In this document: positions 43,998 to 55,130 of the stretch, piece after piece
Position numbering within the stretch: the first letter of the stretch is position 1
Layout of the letters: every line of letters begins with the position of its first letter
Source of the DNA: a virus
Direction: 5' to 3' (one strand)
IMG/VR virus record: IMGVR_UViG_3300044530_000662
Location: 53,286 to 117,285 of that record
DNA length: 64,000 bases
The notes under the pieces: generated by a model
The model's input: the letters and a program-made list of their open reading frames with translations, nothing else
The model's database searches: none
What the model was told of the DNA's origin: nothing
Translations under genes and position numbers: made by a program

Positions 43998-44331
43998 TAA
44001 AATTTTATAGAATTTTTAAAAGTTGTATATAAGACATGGTAGTGGGTCCTTATAAAACTTACCCCGGGGGTGCAAAACAAAGTGGTATACCCCCTACAAA
44101 TTCTACAGAGGAAGCCATACTCTAGAAAATATTTGTAAAACATTTATTTCTAGAAAAGTATTTCTATTCTACTACAAGAAGTAAGTAGTACATACTATAT
44201 TATATCTTATGTACTAATTATTAATACAAGAAGAAAGAGAGAAGGTGCTCTTGCTCACACACAAGCCAACACAAGAGAACACAGAAGACAAGCCATATAT
44301 ACAACTTCTATTGTAATATAAATTATATACT

Positions 44332-44532
44332 ATGAAAATATATTATGCAGAGATTACTGACTTTGCAGGCAAAGCAGTAATGAATTTAGAATACACAGCA
44401 TCAGCTAAACATAGTGCTAAGCTTGCTGAAATATTCATAAAGAATTGCCCACCTGCTCAAGGATTCAACATAAGGCTTGCCTTTATTGAAGCTAAGCATA
44501 TTGCAAGTATGATGAATAACTATAGAGGATAA
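44332..44532 (+). CDS. Early cassette gene 1
   Basis: 66 aa with motif upstream and hairpin terminator over the stop codon. Confidence 0.7.
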   Translation: MKIYYAEITDFAGKAVMNLEYTASAKHSAKLAEIFIKNCPPAQGFNIRLAFIEAKHIASMMNNYRG

Positions 44533-44585
44533 ACCTCTATAGTTTTTTTATTAGCAACTTCTATTGTATTATAAAACTATATGCT

Positions 44586-44753
44586 ATGAAATACAAGATT
44601 CAATTCCACATAGTTTCTGTTGATGAGATTAAATCTATACAACAGAAACTAAATACTTGGCTTACTACAGGCCATATGAAAAAGTTTGAAACATTTGTTC
44701 TACCTGATGGAAGACTTCTGTTTCAATGCTTAGTGTTAAAATCAGAGGAGTAA
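44586..44753 (+). CDS. Early cassette gene 2 (55 aa)
   Basis: Read manually: MKYKIQFHIVSVDEIKSIQQKLNTWL...KSEE. Confidence 0.7.
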   Translation: MKYKIQFHIVSVDEIKSIQQKLNTWLTTGHMKKFETFVLPDGRLLFQCLVLKSEE

Positions 44754-44805
44754 TCCTCTGTTTTTTTTCTGCATAACAACTTTTATTATATAAGAAATAT
44801 ATACT

Positions 44806-44988
44806 ATGACTGCAAACCAACTATTTGATTTAGCTGAAACGCTAGATAAAGCAATTGCTACCTTAGAAACAGAAGGTAAGACATTTAAAGAAAGATGTGA
44901 ACTAGCTGATTTAAAAGCATATAGAGCCTATGTTCAAGAAGGTATTGAAGCTGTTATATCAGCAATGGAGAGTAATACAGGGGAATAA
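44806..44988 (+). CDS. Early cassette gene 3 (helical hairpin)
   Basis: 60 aa with cassette architecture. Confidence 0.7.
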   Translation: MTANQLFDLAETLDKAIATLETEGKTFKERCELADLKAYRAYVQEGIEAVISAMESNTGE

Positions 44989-45038
44989 CCTGTATTACTT
45001 TTTTATTAGCAACTTTTATTATATAAGAAATATATACT

Positions 45039-45257
45039 ATGATAAAACTAATGTTTGTATGGTTGGTATTAACTGGACAAGTTAAGTATCAACAAAGTGG
45101 TGAAGATGGTAGAAAGCAATATGCTTTGTTCTTTGAAGATGGTAAAGTAATAGATTATGCTTATAAGCAAGAAATCTATGAATACATTCAAACTGGCACA
45201 TTTGAGTATGATGATACTTTGGATGACAAAGTAACAAAAGAACATAAGGGGGAGTAA
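45039..45257 (+). CDS. Early cassette gene 4
   Basis: 72 aa with a hydrophobic N-terminus and cassette architecture. Confidence 0.7.
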   Translation: MIKLMFVWLVLTGQVKYQQSGEDGRKQYALFFEDGKVIDYAYKQEIYEYIQTGTFEYDDTLDDKVTKEHKGE

Positions 45258-45307
45258 TCTCCCTTTTTTTCTTAAGCAACTTTTATTGCAATAAAAATAT
45301 ATACACT

Positions 45308-45499
45308 ATGATAACAACATTTATTATTGAGCAAATAGAACAGATTGAAGGAATTCTGATTCTATTAGGAAAACAAACTGACGCAGTTGTGTTAAAAGCA
45401 TTTGAGCAATTACCTGAAAAGGAAATAATAGCTTACAGAGATTCATTAGTTCAAGAATTTGAAGTTATGAATCCGGGGAAAACTTTGTTAGTTGTATAG
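45308..45499 (+). CDS. Early cassette gene 5
   Basis: 63 aa with cassette architecture. Confidence 0.7.
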   Translation: MITTFIIEQIEQIEGILILLGKQTDAVVLKAFEQLPEKEIIAYRDSLVQEFEVMNPGKTLLVV

Positions 45500-45580
45500 T
45501 TTATGGGGGAAGCAATTCCCCTTTTTTTCTTCTATACAAAAGCAACTTTTATTGAAATAAAAATCTTAAAACCATACAAT

Positions 45581-45967
45581 ATGAAAAAGTTAGATGCTTA
45601 CAAACAAGCAAAATTAGATTACAACTTTGCTAAAGAAACAGTTAACAAACTACACGAAGTCCTTAGATTTTATGGAACAGTTGCTGTTGGTAATAGTATT
45701 ACCATTAATTCTTCAAGTTCTGATAAACAATTTGTCTACTCAGTAGGTATATTGAATAATCAAATCAATGCTTGTAAAGAATTAGGTTTAGATCCTCAAG
45801 AGTATGAAGAATCTAAAGCTACTGTTATTCAGCTTAGAGCTACAAGCAAAGATTTAGTAGCCTGGAGTGATTACGCAAATGACTTGTACACTTATATGAG
45901 TAAGGTACACAATCTTTTAGATAAAGATGAGTTGTTCAAGTTAATTGAGATTCCTGTTAGACCGTAA
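45581..45967 (+). CDS. Early cassette gene 6 (start 45581, 128 aa)
   Basis: The ORF-track start at 45503 lies inside the previous terminator; the ATG after the motif is at 45581. Confidence 0.7.
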   Translation: MKKLDAYKQAKLDYNFAKETVNKLHEVLRFYGTVAVGNSITINSSSSDKQFVYSVGILNNQINACKELGLDPQEYEESKATVIQLRATSKDLVAWSDYANDLYTYMSKVHNLLDKDELFKLIEIPVRP

Positions 45968-46045
45968 TAATATAAGGGTGTGTAGAAATACATACCCTTT
46001 ATTATTTTACACAAGCAACTTTTATTTAATCTTAAATTATATACT

Positions 46046-46195
46046 ATGGACAAAGTAACAATTGTGATCAGTTGGGAAGAGTATGAAACTATGATCAGTG
46101 CTATTAAAGCAATGAAGAATATGGTAGACAGTGACAAGTTAGATCAACTCTATGTAAAGTTATACATTGAAAGAAAAGTAGAGAAAGGGAAGTAA
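46046..46195 (+). CDS. Early cassette gene 7 (49 aa)
   Basis: Read manually: MDKVTIVISWEEYETMISAIKAMK...EKGK. Confidence 0.7.
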   Translation: MDKVTIVISWEEYETMISAIKAMKNMVDSDKLDQLYVKLYIERKVEKGK

Positions 46196-46263
46196 TTCCC
46201 TTTTTTTAAGCCTTCGGCTAGCCTATAGCAACTTCTATTTTACTAGAATTAAAACTATATATT

Positions 46264-46689
46264 ATGAACAAAATTATTGAAGTAGCCTTAAAAGGCAGAT
46301 TTAGTACTGATGATGTAACAAGCTTAATGGACGTAGTAACTGCTACACCTAATCCTGAAATGGCAACAGAGATTCTGTTAGGTGTCTATGTAAAACCTGA
46401 TCTTCCTAATGTTGTTGTTACAGATCAAGGATTAGAAAAGACTGTGGTTAGTGTTGACTATTGGACTAATTATGTTACTTATTCTTATCAAGAAGAAGTA
46501 AGAAAACAGTTCTATATTGACAAAGACACTGACACAAGTTTAATTACTCTTGACAATTACAAGGATTATGAAAGAAGATATGATGATGATAATATCAGAT
46601 CCTTTTATCTTCCAACAGGAGAAATTAAAACTAGAAAATCAAATTGTAGTTTTGGTGATTGGTTATCACAAGAAGCATTAGCAGTTTAA
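46264..46689 (+). CDS. Early cassette gene 8
   Basis: 141 aa; N-terminal region loosely similar to 51629-52057 (PNPEMATEIL / PNGEEIAKLL). Confidence 0.7.
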   Translation: MNKIIEVALKGRFSTDDVTSLMDVVTATPNPEMATEILLGVYVKPDLPNVVVTDQGLEKTVVSVDYWTNYVTYSYQEEVRKQFYIDKDTDTSLITLDNYKDYERRYDDDNIRSFYLPTGEIKTRKSNCSFGDWLSQEALAV

Positions 46690-46865
46690 AGATAAGGGGG
46701 AGAAATCCCCTTTTCTTTTTTGTCTCCACCGTGTGGAACAAGTTGACTTTGCCACTGAAAATGAGACAGTTACAAAATGAGAGTTTTTGACTGTTAGAAG
46801 CCTACGGCTTAGCCTTTAGCAACTTTTATTGTAAGAAAATATTATTAACCCAAAAACAAAAAGTT

Positions 46866-47270: not shown

Positions 47271-48047
47271 CAGGGATTGTAATAGGGGTGTAGAAATACA
47301 CCCTTATTATTTTAGTAAAGCTATACTAAGTATAGTGTATATAGTATGTTTAATTGTCTTTCAGACAATAGCCTTTTGCAACTTTAATTGTAAGAGAAAG
47401 AGTTTGACTGCTTGTGCGGTCAAGCAACGGTCATTCACCGGTCAATGAGTGGCACATTACTAGTATGTGGAGTGTTGGGTACAGATATAAGAATGTCTGT
47501 ATTATAGGTATGAATAGTTGTTATAGTTAACACTAAATAATTACTGAAAGCTAGTGTCAGTGAGGGATTGGGTGTAATACCCTCAGTCATTCTTTACTAG
47601 TGATGATAACACTACTTTTACCATACAGGCTTAGCTCTACACATTATATGGCTAACACAGTGTCTATATTACCTACTCTTACTCTTATTACTATTAGTGT
47701 TACTATCTCTTATAGTATTATATAAAGTATCACAGTATAAGCTTCCGGGATTACAGTAATTTCCGGTCATAAAGTCCTATTGTAGCATAGTTAACACAGC
47801 AGATAGGCATTACCTGTATTCCTGAGTATGAATCAAAACTACTCTTATTTACTAATCAGTATCCTTGAACAAATGATAGGAACAGATTAAACTATGTATT
47901 TCAATAGATATGGAGAGGCAGTAATCCTCTCTGCAACTTGTACAGCTAACCAATAATGCTGTACCACAAATCTTGTAGGTTGTTAGAAACCTTCCCTTAT
48001 AAGGCTCAAGAATAACACGCTTGAGATAGGTACGTGCAGTGTGTTAT

Positions 48048-48177
48048 TACTCTCATCCAAGCAGGTAAACACAATCAGTTATGCTGAGCGTGTGGATATT
48101 ATACCAAGATAGTAGCATATGAAGCATAGTAATATGTAGAGGCTATCAAATTCAAGGATTGCAACCTTGTGAGAGTA
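48048..48177 (+). ncRNA. Structured RNA motif, copy A
   Basis: TACTCTCA/TGAGAGTA closing stem, TCCAAGCAGG, internal stems, CAAGG-ATTGCAA-CCTTG hairpin. Confidence 0.6.
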
Positions 48178-48865
48178 CACGGTCTGTCTATAATAGCAGA
48201 TAAGTCTTGCGGTTCACAACAAGATACTAACAGGTGGAAGTCCTGTTATTTATTAAACACAATTATAGTTCTTAGTGTTGAAAAAGGGATTTGAACTACC
48301 CAATTATGTACTATTTATTTAAGTTAACAGGGCATCAGTACGTGGAGTTCCTTAAGTCCAGCCAAGGTGTAATCAGGAATGATTACTAGGGTAAGACTCC
48401 ACCAGTTATTCTCAAATACTGCCACAATTTTAAAGTCTTTACATAACCTAATAAGAGAATAGGGTAAAGATTAAAAACAGTTTATTAGTTTACTATAGTG
48501 TTCTAGCACTAAAAATAACTGATGGTGTGTTATACCTAATAACAATGCTCTTGAACTTCCCGGACTCATAGAGATTAAGCATGTAAGAATCCGGGTTTCT
48601 GTTGAGCATTCAGATTCAGCTCACAGAGTGATGATTTATTATCACTAGAAAGGTAGATAAGTGTTACTTTGTAACTGCCATAGTTGGGAGATTTGTCTGG
48701 GTAGCAATACCAGATCGGACAAGTCAATGAAAGACTATGGAATGTTATAACAATATTTGTTATTGTTATTATTATTATTATAGTACCTAATGAATCTGAT
48801 TTGACCACAAGGTTTCAGGCTTAAACTCTCATCCTGTAAAGCAGAGTTTGACTTGTGGTTTTTTA

Positions 48866-48975
48866 TACTCTCATCCAAGCAGGATAGAGACTATTGCAAA
48901 ACTAAGTTGGGTGAGGCTAACCTGTAAAACTGCACTTATGAGTAATAGTCCAAGGGTTGCAACCTTGTGAGAGTA
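48866..48975 (+). ncRNA. Structured RNA motif, copy B
   Basis: Same 5' TACTCTCATCCAAGCAGG and 3' CAAGG-GTTGCAA-CCTTGTGAGAGTA; different interior with a GACTATTGC/GTAATAGTC stem. Confidence 0.6.
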
Positions 48976-49063
48976 CTAATAAGTAGGTTTGTGTTGCAAA
49001 TGCAGCAATTTAAGGAAATGTAATTGTAAAGGATCGCAACCTTTTTACAGAGTACTACTACTT

Positions 49064-49165
49064 ATTTTTAATGCACCACAACTCACTTCCCAAGGGTGAG
49101 CAGTTGTAGTATGGGTGTGCCCTACTAACAAAAACAAGGACTACAACTGAGTGCAGAGGGATTAT
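49064..49165 (+). ncRNA. Twister-like self-cleaving ribozyme (P5 present, P1 weak)
   Basis: U^AA-UGCA-CC, P4 CUCAC/GUGAG around (U)UCCCAAGG, P5 CAGUUGUAGU/ACUACAACUG, UGCA-GA-GGGA. T1 UCCC/GGGA; T2 CC/GG. Confidence 0.55.
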
Positions 49166-49202
49166 TAATTTGTAACTTATTAATTAACTTAAAACTATAC
49201 TT

Positions 49203-49409
49203 ATGATTAAAGTAACTAAACAAGAAGCAATTGATATGCTATTAGCTAACAATTACAGAGCAATTGAAATTCTTGAAACATGTGACCATGATGGTGAAGA
49301 TGAAGATGTATTTGTTACAATGGCTTATGTAGATAAATCACATAAACATGTACCATTAAAAGTGTTAAAACAAAACATGGATATGTATGATTTCATATAT
49401 ATAATATAA
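49203..49409 (+). CDS. Hypothetical protein
   Basis: 68 aa with an A-rich TIR (AAAACTATACTTATG). Confidence 0.6.
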   Translation: MIKVTKQEAIDMLLANNYRAIEILETCDHDGEDEDVFVTMAYVDKSHKHVPLKVLKQNMDMYDFIYII

Positions 49410-49410
49410 T

Positions 49411-49528
49411 TAATACACCATTCTAACTTAGGTTAGACAGTTGTAATACCTTCGGACTGCTGTGTATACGCAAGGTCTTGTAGAAGTAATCAAGCAGGGA
49501 ATGCTTCTATTACAACTGTGGTGTATTA
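49411..49528 (+). ncRNA. Three-way-junction element related in outline to the twister-like RNA
   Basis: TAATACACCA/TGGTGTATTA, TCTAAC/GTTAGA, CAGTTGTAAT/ATTACAACTG. Confidence 0.45.
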
Positions 49529-49736
49529 ATTTATACTGGGAGCATGTGACCATGAAAGAGGCATGCATATTTACTCTAATTAGGCACAAGTATGACTCTA
49601 AGTGCCGAGCTACCTAGGGAGTTGAGTTACCCGATTTATTATGAGAACTGAAAAAGATTGTCCGTTTATAGTGCGGGGCTGAGAAGATCTGTAAGCCAAC
49701 ACTATTTCTTTTGATTATTAACTCTGATTAAAAATT

Positions 49737-51210: not shown

Positions 51211-51295
51211 AGCAAGGTGGTGTAATTGGTAACACGGTCCTAATTTAATATGGTGAATACCAGGTCTAGTATCTGTTCAAATCAGATCCTTGCTA
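51211..51295 (+). tRNA. tRNA-like element with an aberrant, expanded anticodon arm (isotype not assignable)
   Basis: Acceptor AGCAAGG/CCTTGCT, D-arm GTGT-AATTGGTA-ACAC, T-arm ATCTG-TTCAAAT-CAGAT. The 34 nt between these arms do not form a canonical 7-nt anticodon loop; no CCA. Confidence 0.55.
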
Positions 51296-51411
51296 CAGTT
51301 GCAACAGTGCAACTTTGCCTTACCCTGACAGGAACAAAAACCTAGAGGCTTAAAAGTGGGTGACAGCTGGAAAGACAGCATTTTTTATTTATAAACTGTA
51401 ATATCAAAGCA

Positions 51412-53126: not shown

Positions 53127-53615
53127 ATGTATAAAATGGAAAAGTTAAAACAACAGATTAAAGATTATCAGTTAAATGCAGGCAAAACCTACATGAGTTA
53201 TGAAACTGATGGGTACTCACAATACCAAACATACCTTTACAAAAGAGCACTATATGGTTTAGATGCTCTAACACAACAAGAACTAGCTACTATGTGTAGC
53301 AAAAAGAAACAAAGAATAATTAATGTTTATAAAAGAGCACAAGTTGCACTTAATAAGTTTAAGCAAGAAGTTACTATACAATATAGTAATTTTATATTCA
53401 AAACTTTGTTTCCAAATAGTCCTATTACAGAATTCTTAATGGCTGATACTGAGACTGATGAGAAGTTCAAGAATACTTTAACTTTTAAAGATTTAGGCAT
53501 CAACAAAGAACAAATTATTACTATCTTTATTAATGAAGGTATCCTTCCTAAAAACTTTTTAAGTTTAGATAAGGATCCAAACAGTTTACCAAGATTAAAA
53601 ACCACTAAAAACTAA
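53127..53615 (+). CDS. Hypothetical protein
   Basis: 162 aa. Confidence 0.65.
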   Translation: MYKMEKLKQQIKDYQLNAGKTYMSYETDGYSQYQTYLYKRALYGLDALTQQELATMCSKKKQRIINVYKRAQVALNKFKQEVTIQYSNFIFKTLFPNSPITEFLMADTETDEKFKNTLTFKDLGINKEQIITIFINEGILPKNFLSLDKDPNSLPRLKTTKN

Positions 53616-54224: not shown

Positions 54225-55130
54225 ATGACAGAAGAAGAACAATTAAAAATAATTCAGGCTAAGCTAAACATTACTGACAAAAGAACAGTAAAGCAAATCT
54301 TAGCACATAAAGAGCTTTGTGAAGATATTATAAACAGAGATGTGATATCTGAACAAGAGCTGGTGGAGGAATATCAAATTCCTCAGAGCCATTTAAAAAG
54401 TTTAAAACAACAGAATAAACTATCTTTCTTTGCAAGTACAGGTGAAGTAAATAAAATTAGCCGTGGATCTAAAGTATATTATTTTGTAGATGAAGTAAAA
54501 GACTTGTTTGGATATAACATCCGTTACAATAAATCTCATTCTTTTAAGAAAAGTATATTTAACAAGCTAGTGGTTGATATGTCAACAGAACTATGTACAA
54601 GTACAGAAGCTGGAGCATTAAAAATGTTTCTTATAAATAATTTATCAGTTGAAGAAATTGGTGAACATTACATTATAACCAATGAAAGAACAAATCAATT
54701 AATATCTAAGGCTTATAGAAGAATTGTTAGTAAAGTGTTTCAGCTTAATAAAATGTTTAAAAGCTATAGAACAAATCTTGAGTATCAAACTGAAAATGAG
54801 TTATTAAAAAAACAAAATACAGAATTATACAATAAGTTTTTAAGAGTTAAAGAAAATGATGTTCTTAAAGATCTTAAGTCTAATACAAATGTTGAACACT
54901 TTGTTAAACATGGTTATGATGTTAAAGACTTAGTTAAAGGCTTACATGAATTTAAAGAATATTTGTCTGTAAGAGCACTTACATGTTTAAAAAATGCATA
55001 TATTGAAAATCTTGATGAGCTACTATCTTATCCTAAACGTGATCTTATAAGATTAAGAAATATGGGTGAGAAGACTGTAAGTGAGATTTGTGATTGGTTA
55101 GAAGATAAGTACAATTGGGAATTAAAATAA
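54225..55130 (+). CDS. HTH protein fused to an RNA polymerase alpha-CTD-like domain
   Basis: C-terminal LSVRALTCLKNAYIENLDELL...LIRLRNMGEKTVSEI is the alpha-CTD signature; central sigma-4-like LSVEEIGEHY...ERTNQLISKA. Confidence 0.75.
   Translation: MTEEEQLKIIQAKLNITDKRTVKQILAHKELCEDIINRDVISEQELVEEYQIPQSHLKSLKQQNKLSFFASTGEVNKISRGSKVYYFVDEVKDLFGYNIRYNKSHSFKKSIFNKLVVDMSTELCTSTEAGALKMFLINNLSVEEIGEHYIITNERTNQLISKAYRRIVSKVFQLNKMFKSYRTNLEYQTENELLKKQNTELYNKFLRVKENDVLKDLKSNTNVEHFVKHGYDVKDLVKGLHEFKEYLSVRALTCLKNAYIENLDELLSYPKRDLIRLRNMGEKTVSEICDWLEDKYNWELK

Follow-up and report, generated by a model that had tools for sequence, protein, structure and literature searches.

A phage-borne family of structured RNAs in lake crAss-like phages combines a constant tRNA-like scaffold with exchangeable arms

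We describe a previously undescribed, phage-restricted, accessory and low-copy family of structured RNAs, in which constant 5′ and 3′ ends fold into a compact scaffold around a variable arm that is exchanged between related phages. Two members, copies A and B, lie in the stretch of DNA analyzed here (the window), which comprises the final 64 kb (64,000 nucleotides; positions 53,286 to 117,285) of the 117,285-bp viral record IMGVR_UViG_3300044530_000662, itself 99% complete. The window has a GC content of ∼32% and a strand switch of transcription near 44 kb, and both copies fall within a 1.75-kb stretch free of open reading frames (ORFs), ∼47450-49200, on the plus-strand arm. Both were delimited by sequence, fold and R1, the covariance model used to score elements in the window, and are made up as follows.

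48048..48178, + strand: copy A, full element
48048-48055, + strand: copy A, 5′ strand of helix P1, UACUCUCA; linker U at 48056
48057-48065, + strand: copy A, P2 mini-hairpin CC-AAGCA-GG
48066-48152, + strand: copy A, cargo arm (interior type 3), two to three hairpins
48153-48169, + strand: copy A, P4 hairpin CAAGG-AUUGCAA-CCUUG
48170-48177, + strand: copy A, 3′ strand of P1, UGAGAGUA; conserved unpaired C at 48178
48866..48976, + strand: copy B, full element
48866-48873, + strand: copy B, 5′ strand of P1; U at 48874; P2 at 48875-48883
48884-48950, + strand: copy B, cargo arm, one long arm
48951-48967, + strand: copy B, P4 hairpin CAAGG-GUUGCAA-CCUUG
48968-48975, + strand: copy B, 3′ strand of P1; C at 48976

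The 18-nt 5′ block TACTCTCATCCAAGCAGG has the same letters at 48048 and 48866, and the 26-nt 3′ block, CAAGG-RTTGCAA-CCTTG-TGAGAGTAC, is 96% identical between 48153 and 48951, around interiors that are unrelated. This arrangement had been noticed in a first-pass annotation made from the letters of the window, and our analysis bears it out, extending each copy by 1 nt, the conserved C. Against an expectation of 0.32, the window contains AAGGRTYGCAACCTT, the word of the hairpin, at three sites (0 of 100 shuffles gave three copies), and the full 117-kb genome has no others. Both copies adopt a closed multi-branch fold on the plus strand, and the minus strand folds less well. Copy A folds at −33.1 kcal/mol (z −2.3) and scores 70.2 bits against R1 (E 1.8e-13); the minimum-energy fold of copy B is cloverleaf-like, at −34.3 kcal/mol (z −3.0), with an R1 score of 82.6 bits (E 2.7e-16). 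The interior of copy A was found in the orthologues L034, L049, L125, L136, L138, L141 and L179 (loci are designated by L numbers), and the interior type of copy B was met in this genome alone.

When IMG/VR was scanned by pattern, using the hairpin word and then the 5′ word, at least 119 loci were obtained with each. Approximately 70 of the at least 119 loci listed for the hairpin word run on into TGAGAGTAC, and 81 of the 89 distinct elements listed for the 5′ word finish with the standard hairpin and TGAGAG. Together the family comprises more than 120 distinct elements in closely related crAss-like phage contigs of ∼115-123 kb. Elements are 51-202 nt long, commonly 83-139 nt, and the minimal 51-nt member is almost without an interior. 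The major capsid protein of the carrier contigs is 93-96% identical to that of this phage, and the terminase has distant relatives (∼24%) among the crAss-like phages that infect Bacteroides, Flavobacterium and Cellulophaga; terminase sequence thus places the carriers, a group of lake crAss-like phages, with the crAss-like phages of Bacteroidota. A scan of cellular genomes (one genome per species, 185,579 prokaryote species) returned four matches, all in metagenome bins, one of them a phage-sized contig of 117,852 bp binned with a Chitinophagaceae genome. Complete genomes carry one to three copies. Because five complete phage genomes of similar size that encode a Ro60-like protein (56-88% identical) have no element at all, we conclude that the element is accessory.

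No known family accounts for these elements, in agreement with the first-pass annotation, which had been unable to assign one. Rfam 15 gave no relevant match, either at the gathering threshold over the whole window or at E values up to 10 with 3.2 kb and 131 nt, and ARAGORN called no tRNA or transfer-messenger RNA (tmRNA) at 48048-49055. A blastn search of the 1.85-kb island against 50,697 phage records returned zero matches. The conserved words, in DNA and RNA spelling, were absent from a full-text literature search, and topical searches gave no description of the element. Separately, matches of AAGGTTTAGAACCTTG followed by GTAAGAAAG were rejected as members; they do not share the 5′ motif of the scaffold and may represent the antisense of a coding region.

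The secondary structure and strand of the family were established with two alignments, A1, a MAFFT alignment of 40 elements with different interiors that was not fitted to the model, and A3, a model-based alignment of 89 elements that was fitted to it. P1 is an 8-bp closing stem (UACUCUCA/UGAGAGUA), joined by the one-base linker U to P2, whose 2 bp close a loop, L2, of 5-8 nt (AAGCA or AAUUGCA). P4 has 5 bp (CAAGG/CCUUG) and a 7-nt loop, L4 (RUUGCAA); immediately after P4 come the 3′ strand of P1 and the conserved unpaired C. In the model-fitted A3, counted over 88 distinct sequences, 99% of cells are paired and 10 of the 15 pairs have changes on both sides, values reached in 0 of 500 shuffles (slid controls pair in 36-53%); in A1, double changes were found in 6 of the 15 pairs. 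In divergent members P1 is mostly replaced with its pairing kept (UGUUCUCU/AGAGAACA, UUCUCCUA/UAGGAGAA and UGUUCUUG/CAAGAACA). Several U-G and G-U pairs occur on this strand only, and ORFs are co-oriented with the element (130 of 142 upstream and 123 of 137 downstream), both of which favor an RNA read from the transcribed strand. The median distance of an element is 206 nt from the preceding ORF and 274 nt from the following one. P4 is always a 5-bp stem with a 7-nt loop, and it abuts P1 in 151 of 161 elements. The stack of P1 on P4 can nevertheless be dispensed with, since a subtype (L026, L033, L044, L053, L099 and L112) has two extra small hairpins (e.g., UACUCAUGAAUUUGAGUA and UCCAAUAUUUGGA) that separate P4 from the 3′ strand of P1.

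The two loops of the scaffold change together, in three classes.

L2 ending in GCA, with L4 UUGCAA (GCA with UGC): more than 80 members
L2 AAUUGUA, with L4 AUUACAG (GUA with UAC): L046, in which a C-G pair becomes U-A and five pairs are kept
L2 beginning AAUAG, with L4 WUUAGAA: nine distinct elements

Judged from these sequences, a kissing contact between L2 and L4 is probable. We also considered a homodimer formed between two L4 loops through the palindrome UUGCAA, and rejected it, since the variant loops UUACAG and UUAGAA are non-palindromic while L2 changes alongside them. The order of helices, the unbroken P1-P4 stack, the hairpin of 5 bp with a 7-nt loop and the loop-loop elbow together give the element a tRNA-like layout. 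This geometry is a resemblance and not membership. The T-loop consensus UUCRANY (closed by G53-C61) and the D-loop G18 G19 were not found, L4 being RUUGCAA in more than 80 members with the variants AUUACAG and WUUAGAA. Nor is the element a tmRNA by the features inspected, as neither ARAGORN nor Rfam reported one and the interiors, of 6-203 nt, have no common frame; the variable part is not an ORF. Likewise, its ends UACUCUCA and UGAGAGUA lack the R boxes (RYYYAAC...GTTRRRY) of an integron attC site, a comparison of the ends in which an integrase was not searched for.

Two further observations concern tRNA-like sequences near elements or within them. At 51211-51296 ARAGORN reported an 86-nt 'tRNA-???'. 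Its T arm is canonical (AUCUG-UUCAAAU-CAGAU), a D arm and a long variable arm are present, and the anticodon loop is aberrant, with a two-base 'anticodon'; its acceptor stem, AGCAAGG/CCUUGCU, includes the P4 words CAAGG/CCUUG, and the same 'tRNA-???' is found in L009 and L109, 158 nt upstream of an element. In addition, part of the cargo arm at L004:9029-9157 looks like a canonical T arm (AGUGG-UUCAAAU-CCACU), as though a piece of a tRNA had been taken up as cargo.

Within the constant scaffold, at least 54 unrelated interior types were distinguished among 127 distinct elements, ranging from 6 to 203 nt and containing one to four hairpins. Within one type, the pairing of the arm is kept by compensatory changes and its tip can be replaced wholesale, and the scaffold is invariant even where orthologous arms have visibly diverged in sequence. 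In three independent pairs, L034/L074, L076/L142 and L127/L138, flanks at least 95% identical continue up to ...GCAGG and UCAAGG..., between which both the type and the length of the interior differ; conversely, one arm type, for example that of copy A, is found within different flanks. A total of 133 pairs of loci share only the downstream flank, with interior and upstream flank different, 18 show the reverse, and 6 have both flanks in common and different interiors. Contigs of relatives also diverge at 48045 and 48863, just before the 5′ borders of copies A and B. Because interiors and flanks are exchanged exactly at the borders of the scaffold, we conclude that the constant ends mark recombination junctions and that the structured arm is exchanged in a cassette-like manner. 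The proposal in the first-pass annotation of a conserved scaffold with a variable cargo interior therefore holds well beyond the three copies on which it was based.

One explanation for these mosaic junctions, including the divergence of relatives' contigs at the 5′ borders, is that the element acts mainly as DNA or as punctuation, that is, as an intergenic linker resembling the promoter-early stem-loop (PeSL) that supplies homology for the shuffling of early genes and is perhaps an insulator or terminator, with the RNA fold secondary. However, homology patches need neither an 8-bp long-range stem with six compensating pairs nor loop-loop co-variation nor strand-specific G-U pairs, and the swapped interiors are themselves structured, with covariation of their own. 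Moreover, we found no promoter or terminator (U-tract) at a fixed distance from elements, just an A/U-rich leader of 5-8 nt and an A-C-N-A tail. We consider a role primarily as DNA unlikely.

The first-pass annotation had further described a third copy whose two halves bracket copy B, one copy being nested inside another, and a built-in two-state switch. The features that bear on these proposals are the following.

48804..48864, + strand: hairpin H, terminator-like here, found in ∼19 phage loci with local compensation
48983..49058, + strand: weak degenerate tandem copy, downstream of copy B and not around it (R1 18.2 bits, E 0.12)
49025-49049, + strand: hairpin of the 'third 3′ half', UGUAAAGG-AUCGCAA-CCUUUUUACA; then GAGUAC at 49050-55

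Both halves are present as written, and the TGTAAAG repeated in the two is real, but each is part of a local hairpin of its own. The 'third 5′ half' (ACTCTCATCC, 48825-48844) is the apical part of H, which consists of an outer stem ACCACAAG/CUUGUGGU, an inner stem AAACUCU/AGAGUUU and a loop CAUCCUGUAAAGC, followed by U5. H occurs at L018, L042, L044, L070, L120, L146, L150, L158, L162 and L293-L299 in addition to the window, with or without the U-run, and a standard element begins 21-25 nt downstream of it in 12 loci. Both of its stems show local compensation (AAACUCU/AGAGUUU to AACCUCU/AGGGGUU; AUCACAAG/CUUGUGAU), and the A-to-C change that relatives carry in the 48825 stem finds its compensation within that stem and not in the distal 3′ half. 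The loop of H (CUCUCAUCC-UGUA-AAGCAG) resembles the 5′ strand of the scaffold with a 4-nt insertion, to which it is probably related through an old recombination; this likeness explains why a 'half' had been seen there. H and the 'third 3′ half' occur together only in this genome, in L018 and in the near-identical L169. In L152, the 'third 3′ half', identical over 130 nt, stands behind a different upstream hairpin and the 48825 hairpin is missing. The 'third 3′ half' is better read as part of the weak tandem copy, for which a closing stem GUACU (48972-76)/AGUAC (49051-55) and a loop contact UUGC (∼48996)/GCAA (49036-39) are possible; the stretch 48983-49058 is 100% identical in L018, L152 and L169, which therefore give no covariation information.

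As for the switch, pairing of the 5′ CAAG with CUUG in the 3′ arm of the hairpin, counted on A1, is possible as a 4-bp alternative helix in 98% of cells, and the repetition of the 5′ arm word after CAUCC is seen both in the standard type and in the 48825/49025 pair. That part of the proposal stands, but no compensatory change supports it. Both natural variants of the 3′ arm, in L088 (CCUUA) and L011 (CCCUG), are rescued in the hairpin's own 5′ arm, leaving the 5′ CAAG unchanged and mismatched and so breaking the alternative, and insertions in L2 (UU or UUU; AAUUGCA, AAUUUGCA) disrupt the alternative helix in about a quarter of members. The earlier impression of a joint change in the 5′ segment and the arm of the hairpin rested on one non-unit, and within the true family they do not co-vary. 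Since the 48825 half forms a hairpin by itself, with covariation of its own, and each half is found without the other, we reject the nesting of one copy in another and regard its combination with a two-state switch as highly improbable.

The remainder of the ORF-free island contains further features on the same strand.

49064..49165, + strand: recurrent downstream module, UAAUGCACC...UUCCCAAGG-loop hairpin...GUGCAGAGGGA
47840..47848, + strand: orphan word like the 5′ strand, UACUCUUAU, found by structural scan

Of 118 distinct elements, 33 have the module with the UUCCCAAGG loop no more than 150 nt downstream. In L046 its start adjoins the conserved UAC, and in L094 it is separated from UAU by three bases. 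It has mutually exclusive pairings, of CAGUUGUAGU with ACAACU upstream or with ACUACAACUG downstream, and contigs of relatives lack 49109-49141 of it. Rfam gave no twister hit for 49064-49165. This module may set the 3′ end of the element RNA. The orphan word could pair with the 3′ strand of copy A and may, on this slight resemblance, be a recombination scar. A 452-nt contig from an RNA library has flanks ∼98-99% identical to those of copy A, with the 402 nt from 47856 to 48257, copy A included, replaced by CCAAG, and is a relative or variant without copy A.

Small ribozymes are compact, with invariant loops and junctions and an optional variable stem, an anatomy to which the constant core invites comparison. 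Hatchet, pistol and twister-sister were reportedly discovered (Weinberg et al., 2015) through such ribozyme neighborhoods, and in a 122.8-kb relative a Hatchet ribozyme (L128:10327-10463; score 82 bits, gathering score 51) is situated 600 nt upstream from the element, with one small ORF between them. We therefore weighed the possibility that the core is a new small self-cleaving or self-ligating ribozyme, with P3, the cargo arm, as an optional peripheral stem, that cuts the early transcript together with its neighbors. The minimal core of ∼47-51 nt probably contains a pseudoknot, the letters of its loops and junctions hardly vary, a variable stem is tolerated but optional, and the intergenic neighborhoods are shared with Hatchet (L128) and with the recurrent UUCCCAAGG-loop module. 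However, the twister, twister-sister, hatchet, pistol, hammerhead and HDV-like models gave no match at the gathering threshold or at E≤10, and no other Rfam ribozyme model matched even at E values up to 10 on 131 nt, with the same tool finding the Hatchet of L128 as a positive control. In addition, we can name no candidate cleavage site or catalytic motif, and the invariant letters are mostly in helices rather than junctions. A new ribozyme of this kind seems to us improbable.

A different partner was suggested by a DUF2828+DUF7788 protein (L134:9145-10605, relatives L304-L383) for which a Ro60/TROVE plus vWA fold is predicted from a structural model. More than 6,000 relatives of this protein were found at E≤1e-10, all named hypothetical, and a tRNA gene, one of them 110 nt long (L308:6790-6899), often lies 1.4-3 kb downstream of the Ro60-like gene. 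If the element were the Y-RNA-like partner of this phage protein, its closing stem would bind the ring and its interior would tether other factors. The best 12 PDB matches of the protein model are all Ro60/TROVE proteins, full length, with E values of 9e-7 to 2e-3, and an element lies 0.4-1.5 kb upstream on the same strand in 8 of 15 loci of the closest relatives (81-90% identity). Y RNAs likewise have a stem of 5′ and 3′ ends and a variable interior, with the Ro60 gene within 4 kb on the same strand (PMC4201824). Set against this, the genome studied here is without such a protein, the element is missing from five close loci with the full 4-kb upstream flank and from 65 of 65 more distant loci, and the five complete element-free genomes mentioned above do encode the protein. 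The Ro60-binding motif that Y RNAs carry toward their 5′ end, GGUCCGA or GNCGAA(N)G (PMC4201824), is not in the element, whose 5′ strand is UACUCUCAUCCAAGCAGG, and Rfam finds no YrlA in the loci searched. We judge a Y-RNA-like role to be very unlikely.

In the explanation that we prefer, copies A and B would be two genes, or two domains of one early transcript, of a new phage non-coding RNA family. Their 5′ and 3′ ends form a constant, compact, tRNA-shaped handle in which P1 runs straight into P4 and the P2 loop probably pairs with the P4 loop, much as the D-loop and T-loop do in tRNA. The P3 arm, at the 'anticodon' position, can be almost anything from 6 to ∼200 nt and varies from phage to phage, with each version a conserved structure. 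A constant factor, which might be RNase P, a neighboring self-cleaving ribozyme, a nuclease-resistance fold or a protein partner, would act on the handle, so that each arm is excised from an early non-coding transcript of high abundance and then persists; units would be carved from this transcript by the ribozyme-type modules around them and by the terminator-like hairpin. The actual work would fall to the arms, which might be decoys or regulators subject to diversifying selection, and the invariant ends of 18 nt and 26 nt would double as homology patches at which co-infecting phages swap arms. We give an even chance to the proposition that the arms are variable working parts and that the constant ends serve them as a handle, whether for processing, for stability or for a shared partner. 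A stronger form, either a natural 'RNA display' in which one handle presents dozens of traded arms, each against a different host or rival target and perhaps as a decoy or an inhibitor of host or rival defense systems, or a handle that is itself a new self-processing class of ribozyme, is possible but doubtful.

Several observations weigh against this explanation. The carriers are one closely related group, and the invariance of the ends could partly reflect recent spread and gene conversion. The evidence for the L2-L4 contact amounts to one clean compensatory event plus co-variation at the level of classes. Because the T-loop consensus is absent from L4 and the tRNA model and ARAGORN were negative, recognition by tRNA enzymes is conjecture. 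When the genome of this phage was searched for sequences that the copy A and copy B arms could target by antisense pairing, chance 12-14-mers alone were returned. The largest clusters of neighboring proteins have no Pfam or PHROG hits and are not encoded in this genome, and no partner factor emerged from them. Related contigs in two metatranscriptome runs, the only RNA libraries found, span the whole 9.5 kb; as assembled sequences to which DNA may have contributed, they demonstrate neither transcription nor the ends of an RNA.

Context in another phage speaks for the explanation. Intergenic RNAs of the crAss-like phage phi14:2, long and made early, outnumber most mRNAs and persist through infection, with a function that is not known (bioRxiv 10.1101/2020.03.07.982082); a structural scan of the long early intergenic regions of phi14:2 found no homologous scaffold.

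crAss-like phages are among the most abundant viruses of Bacteroidota, and the family offers a concrete, compact domain in a non-coding island, with a core of 47-51 nt, a predicted tRNA-like elbow and at least 54 natural arms, of high interest to students of RNA and of phages alike. A handle that serves processing or stability would be nature's equivalent of the tRNA scaffolds made by engineering; if the arms are effectors, the speed at which they are exchanged would indicate an arms race at the level of RNA; and if the core cleaves itself, it would define a new ribozyme class. The exact swapping of interiors is a clean example of short conserved ends of RNA genes shaping phage mosaicism.

Other features of the region were recorded alongside. 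The word CAACTTYTATT has 10 exact sites at 44302-46830 of the window, all on the plus strand and ahead of small early ORFs, and 25 matches against 9.5 expected when up to one mismatch is allowed; the last, imperfect copy (one mismatch, 47379) stands at the entrance to the ORF-free island. In relatives the word showed no linkage to elements, and exact copies are rare near them. The next ORF-free gap, after a 68-amino-acid ORF, holds a long near-perfect hairpin at 49408-49531 with exact inverted repeats of 13 nt and 12 nt, and in a 301-amino-acid ORF at 54225-55130 a segment resembling sigma-70 region 4 is found together with an RNA polymerase alpha C-terminal domain (Pfam E 1.6e-13).

Among known systems, the small ribozymes of phage metagenomes (twister, hatchet, pistol and twister-sister) resemble the element in their small and probably pseudoknotted core, optional variable stem and genomic neighborhoods, but the element matches none of them in sequence or structure. 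Y RNA and YrlA are of similar size and likewise have a stem made of the two ends and a variable interior, and a Ro60-fold gene adjoins the element in some phages; they differ in that the element has no Ro60-binding motif and no consistent linkage to the protein. PeSL elements, reportedly mobile regulatory cassettes of T4-type phages (as described by Arbiol et al., 2010), are also short conserved intergenic modules of a hyperplastic early region at recombination junctions of related phages, whereas here the module is a long-range folded RNA with covariation and the unit exchanged is the inside of the module, not the genes between modules. The differences from tRNA are distinct: the loop is RUUGCAA and not UUCRANY, the D-loop GG is missing, no CCA is encoded or implied (the tail is A-C-N-A), P1 has 8 bp with U-A as its first pair, the loop contact is made by Watson-Crick pairs, and the Rfam tRNA and tmRNA models and ARAGORN are blind to the element. 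Nevertheless, as in tRNA, a terminal stem of 7-8 bp (7 in tRNA, 8 in the element) is joined without a linker to a hairpin of 5 bp with a 7-nt loop, and a small 5′ hairpin, reached through a short linker, meets the 3′ hairpin loop to loop, as in the D-loop/T-loop elbow; as in tmRNA and the tRNA scaffolds engineered for recombinant RNA, a foreign arm occupies the anticodon position. We conclude that the element, which lies outside every family tested, acts most like a tRNA-like scaffold bearing foreign arms.

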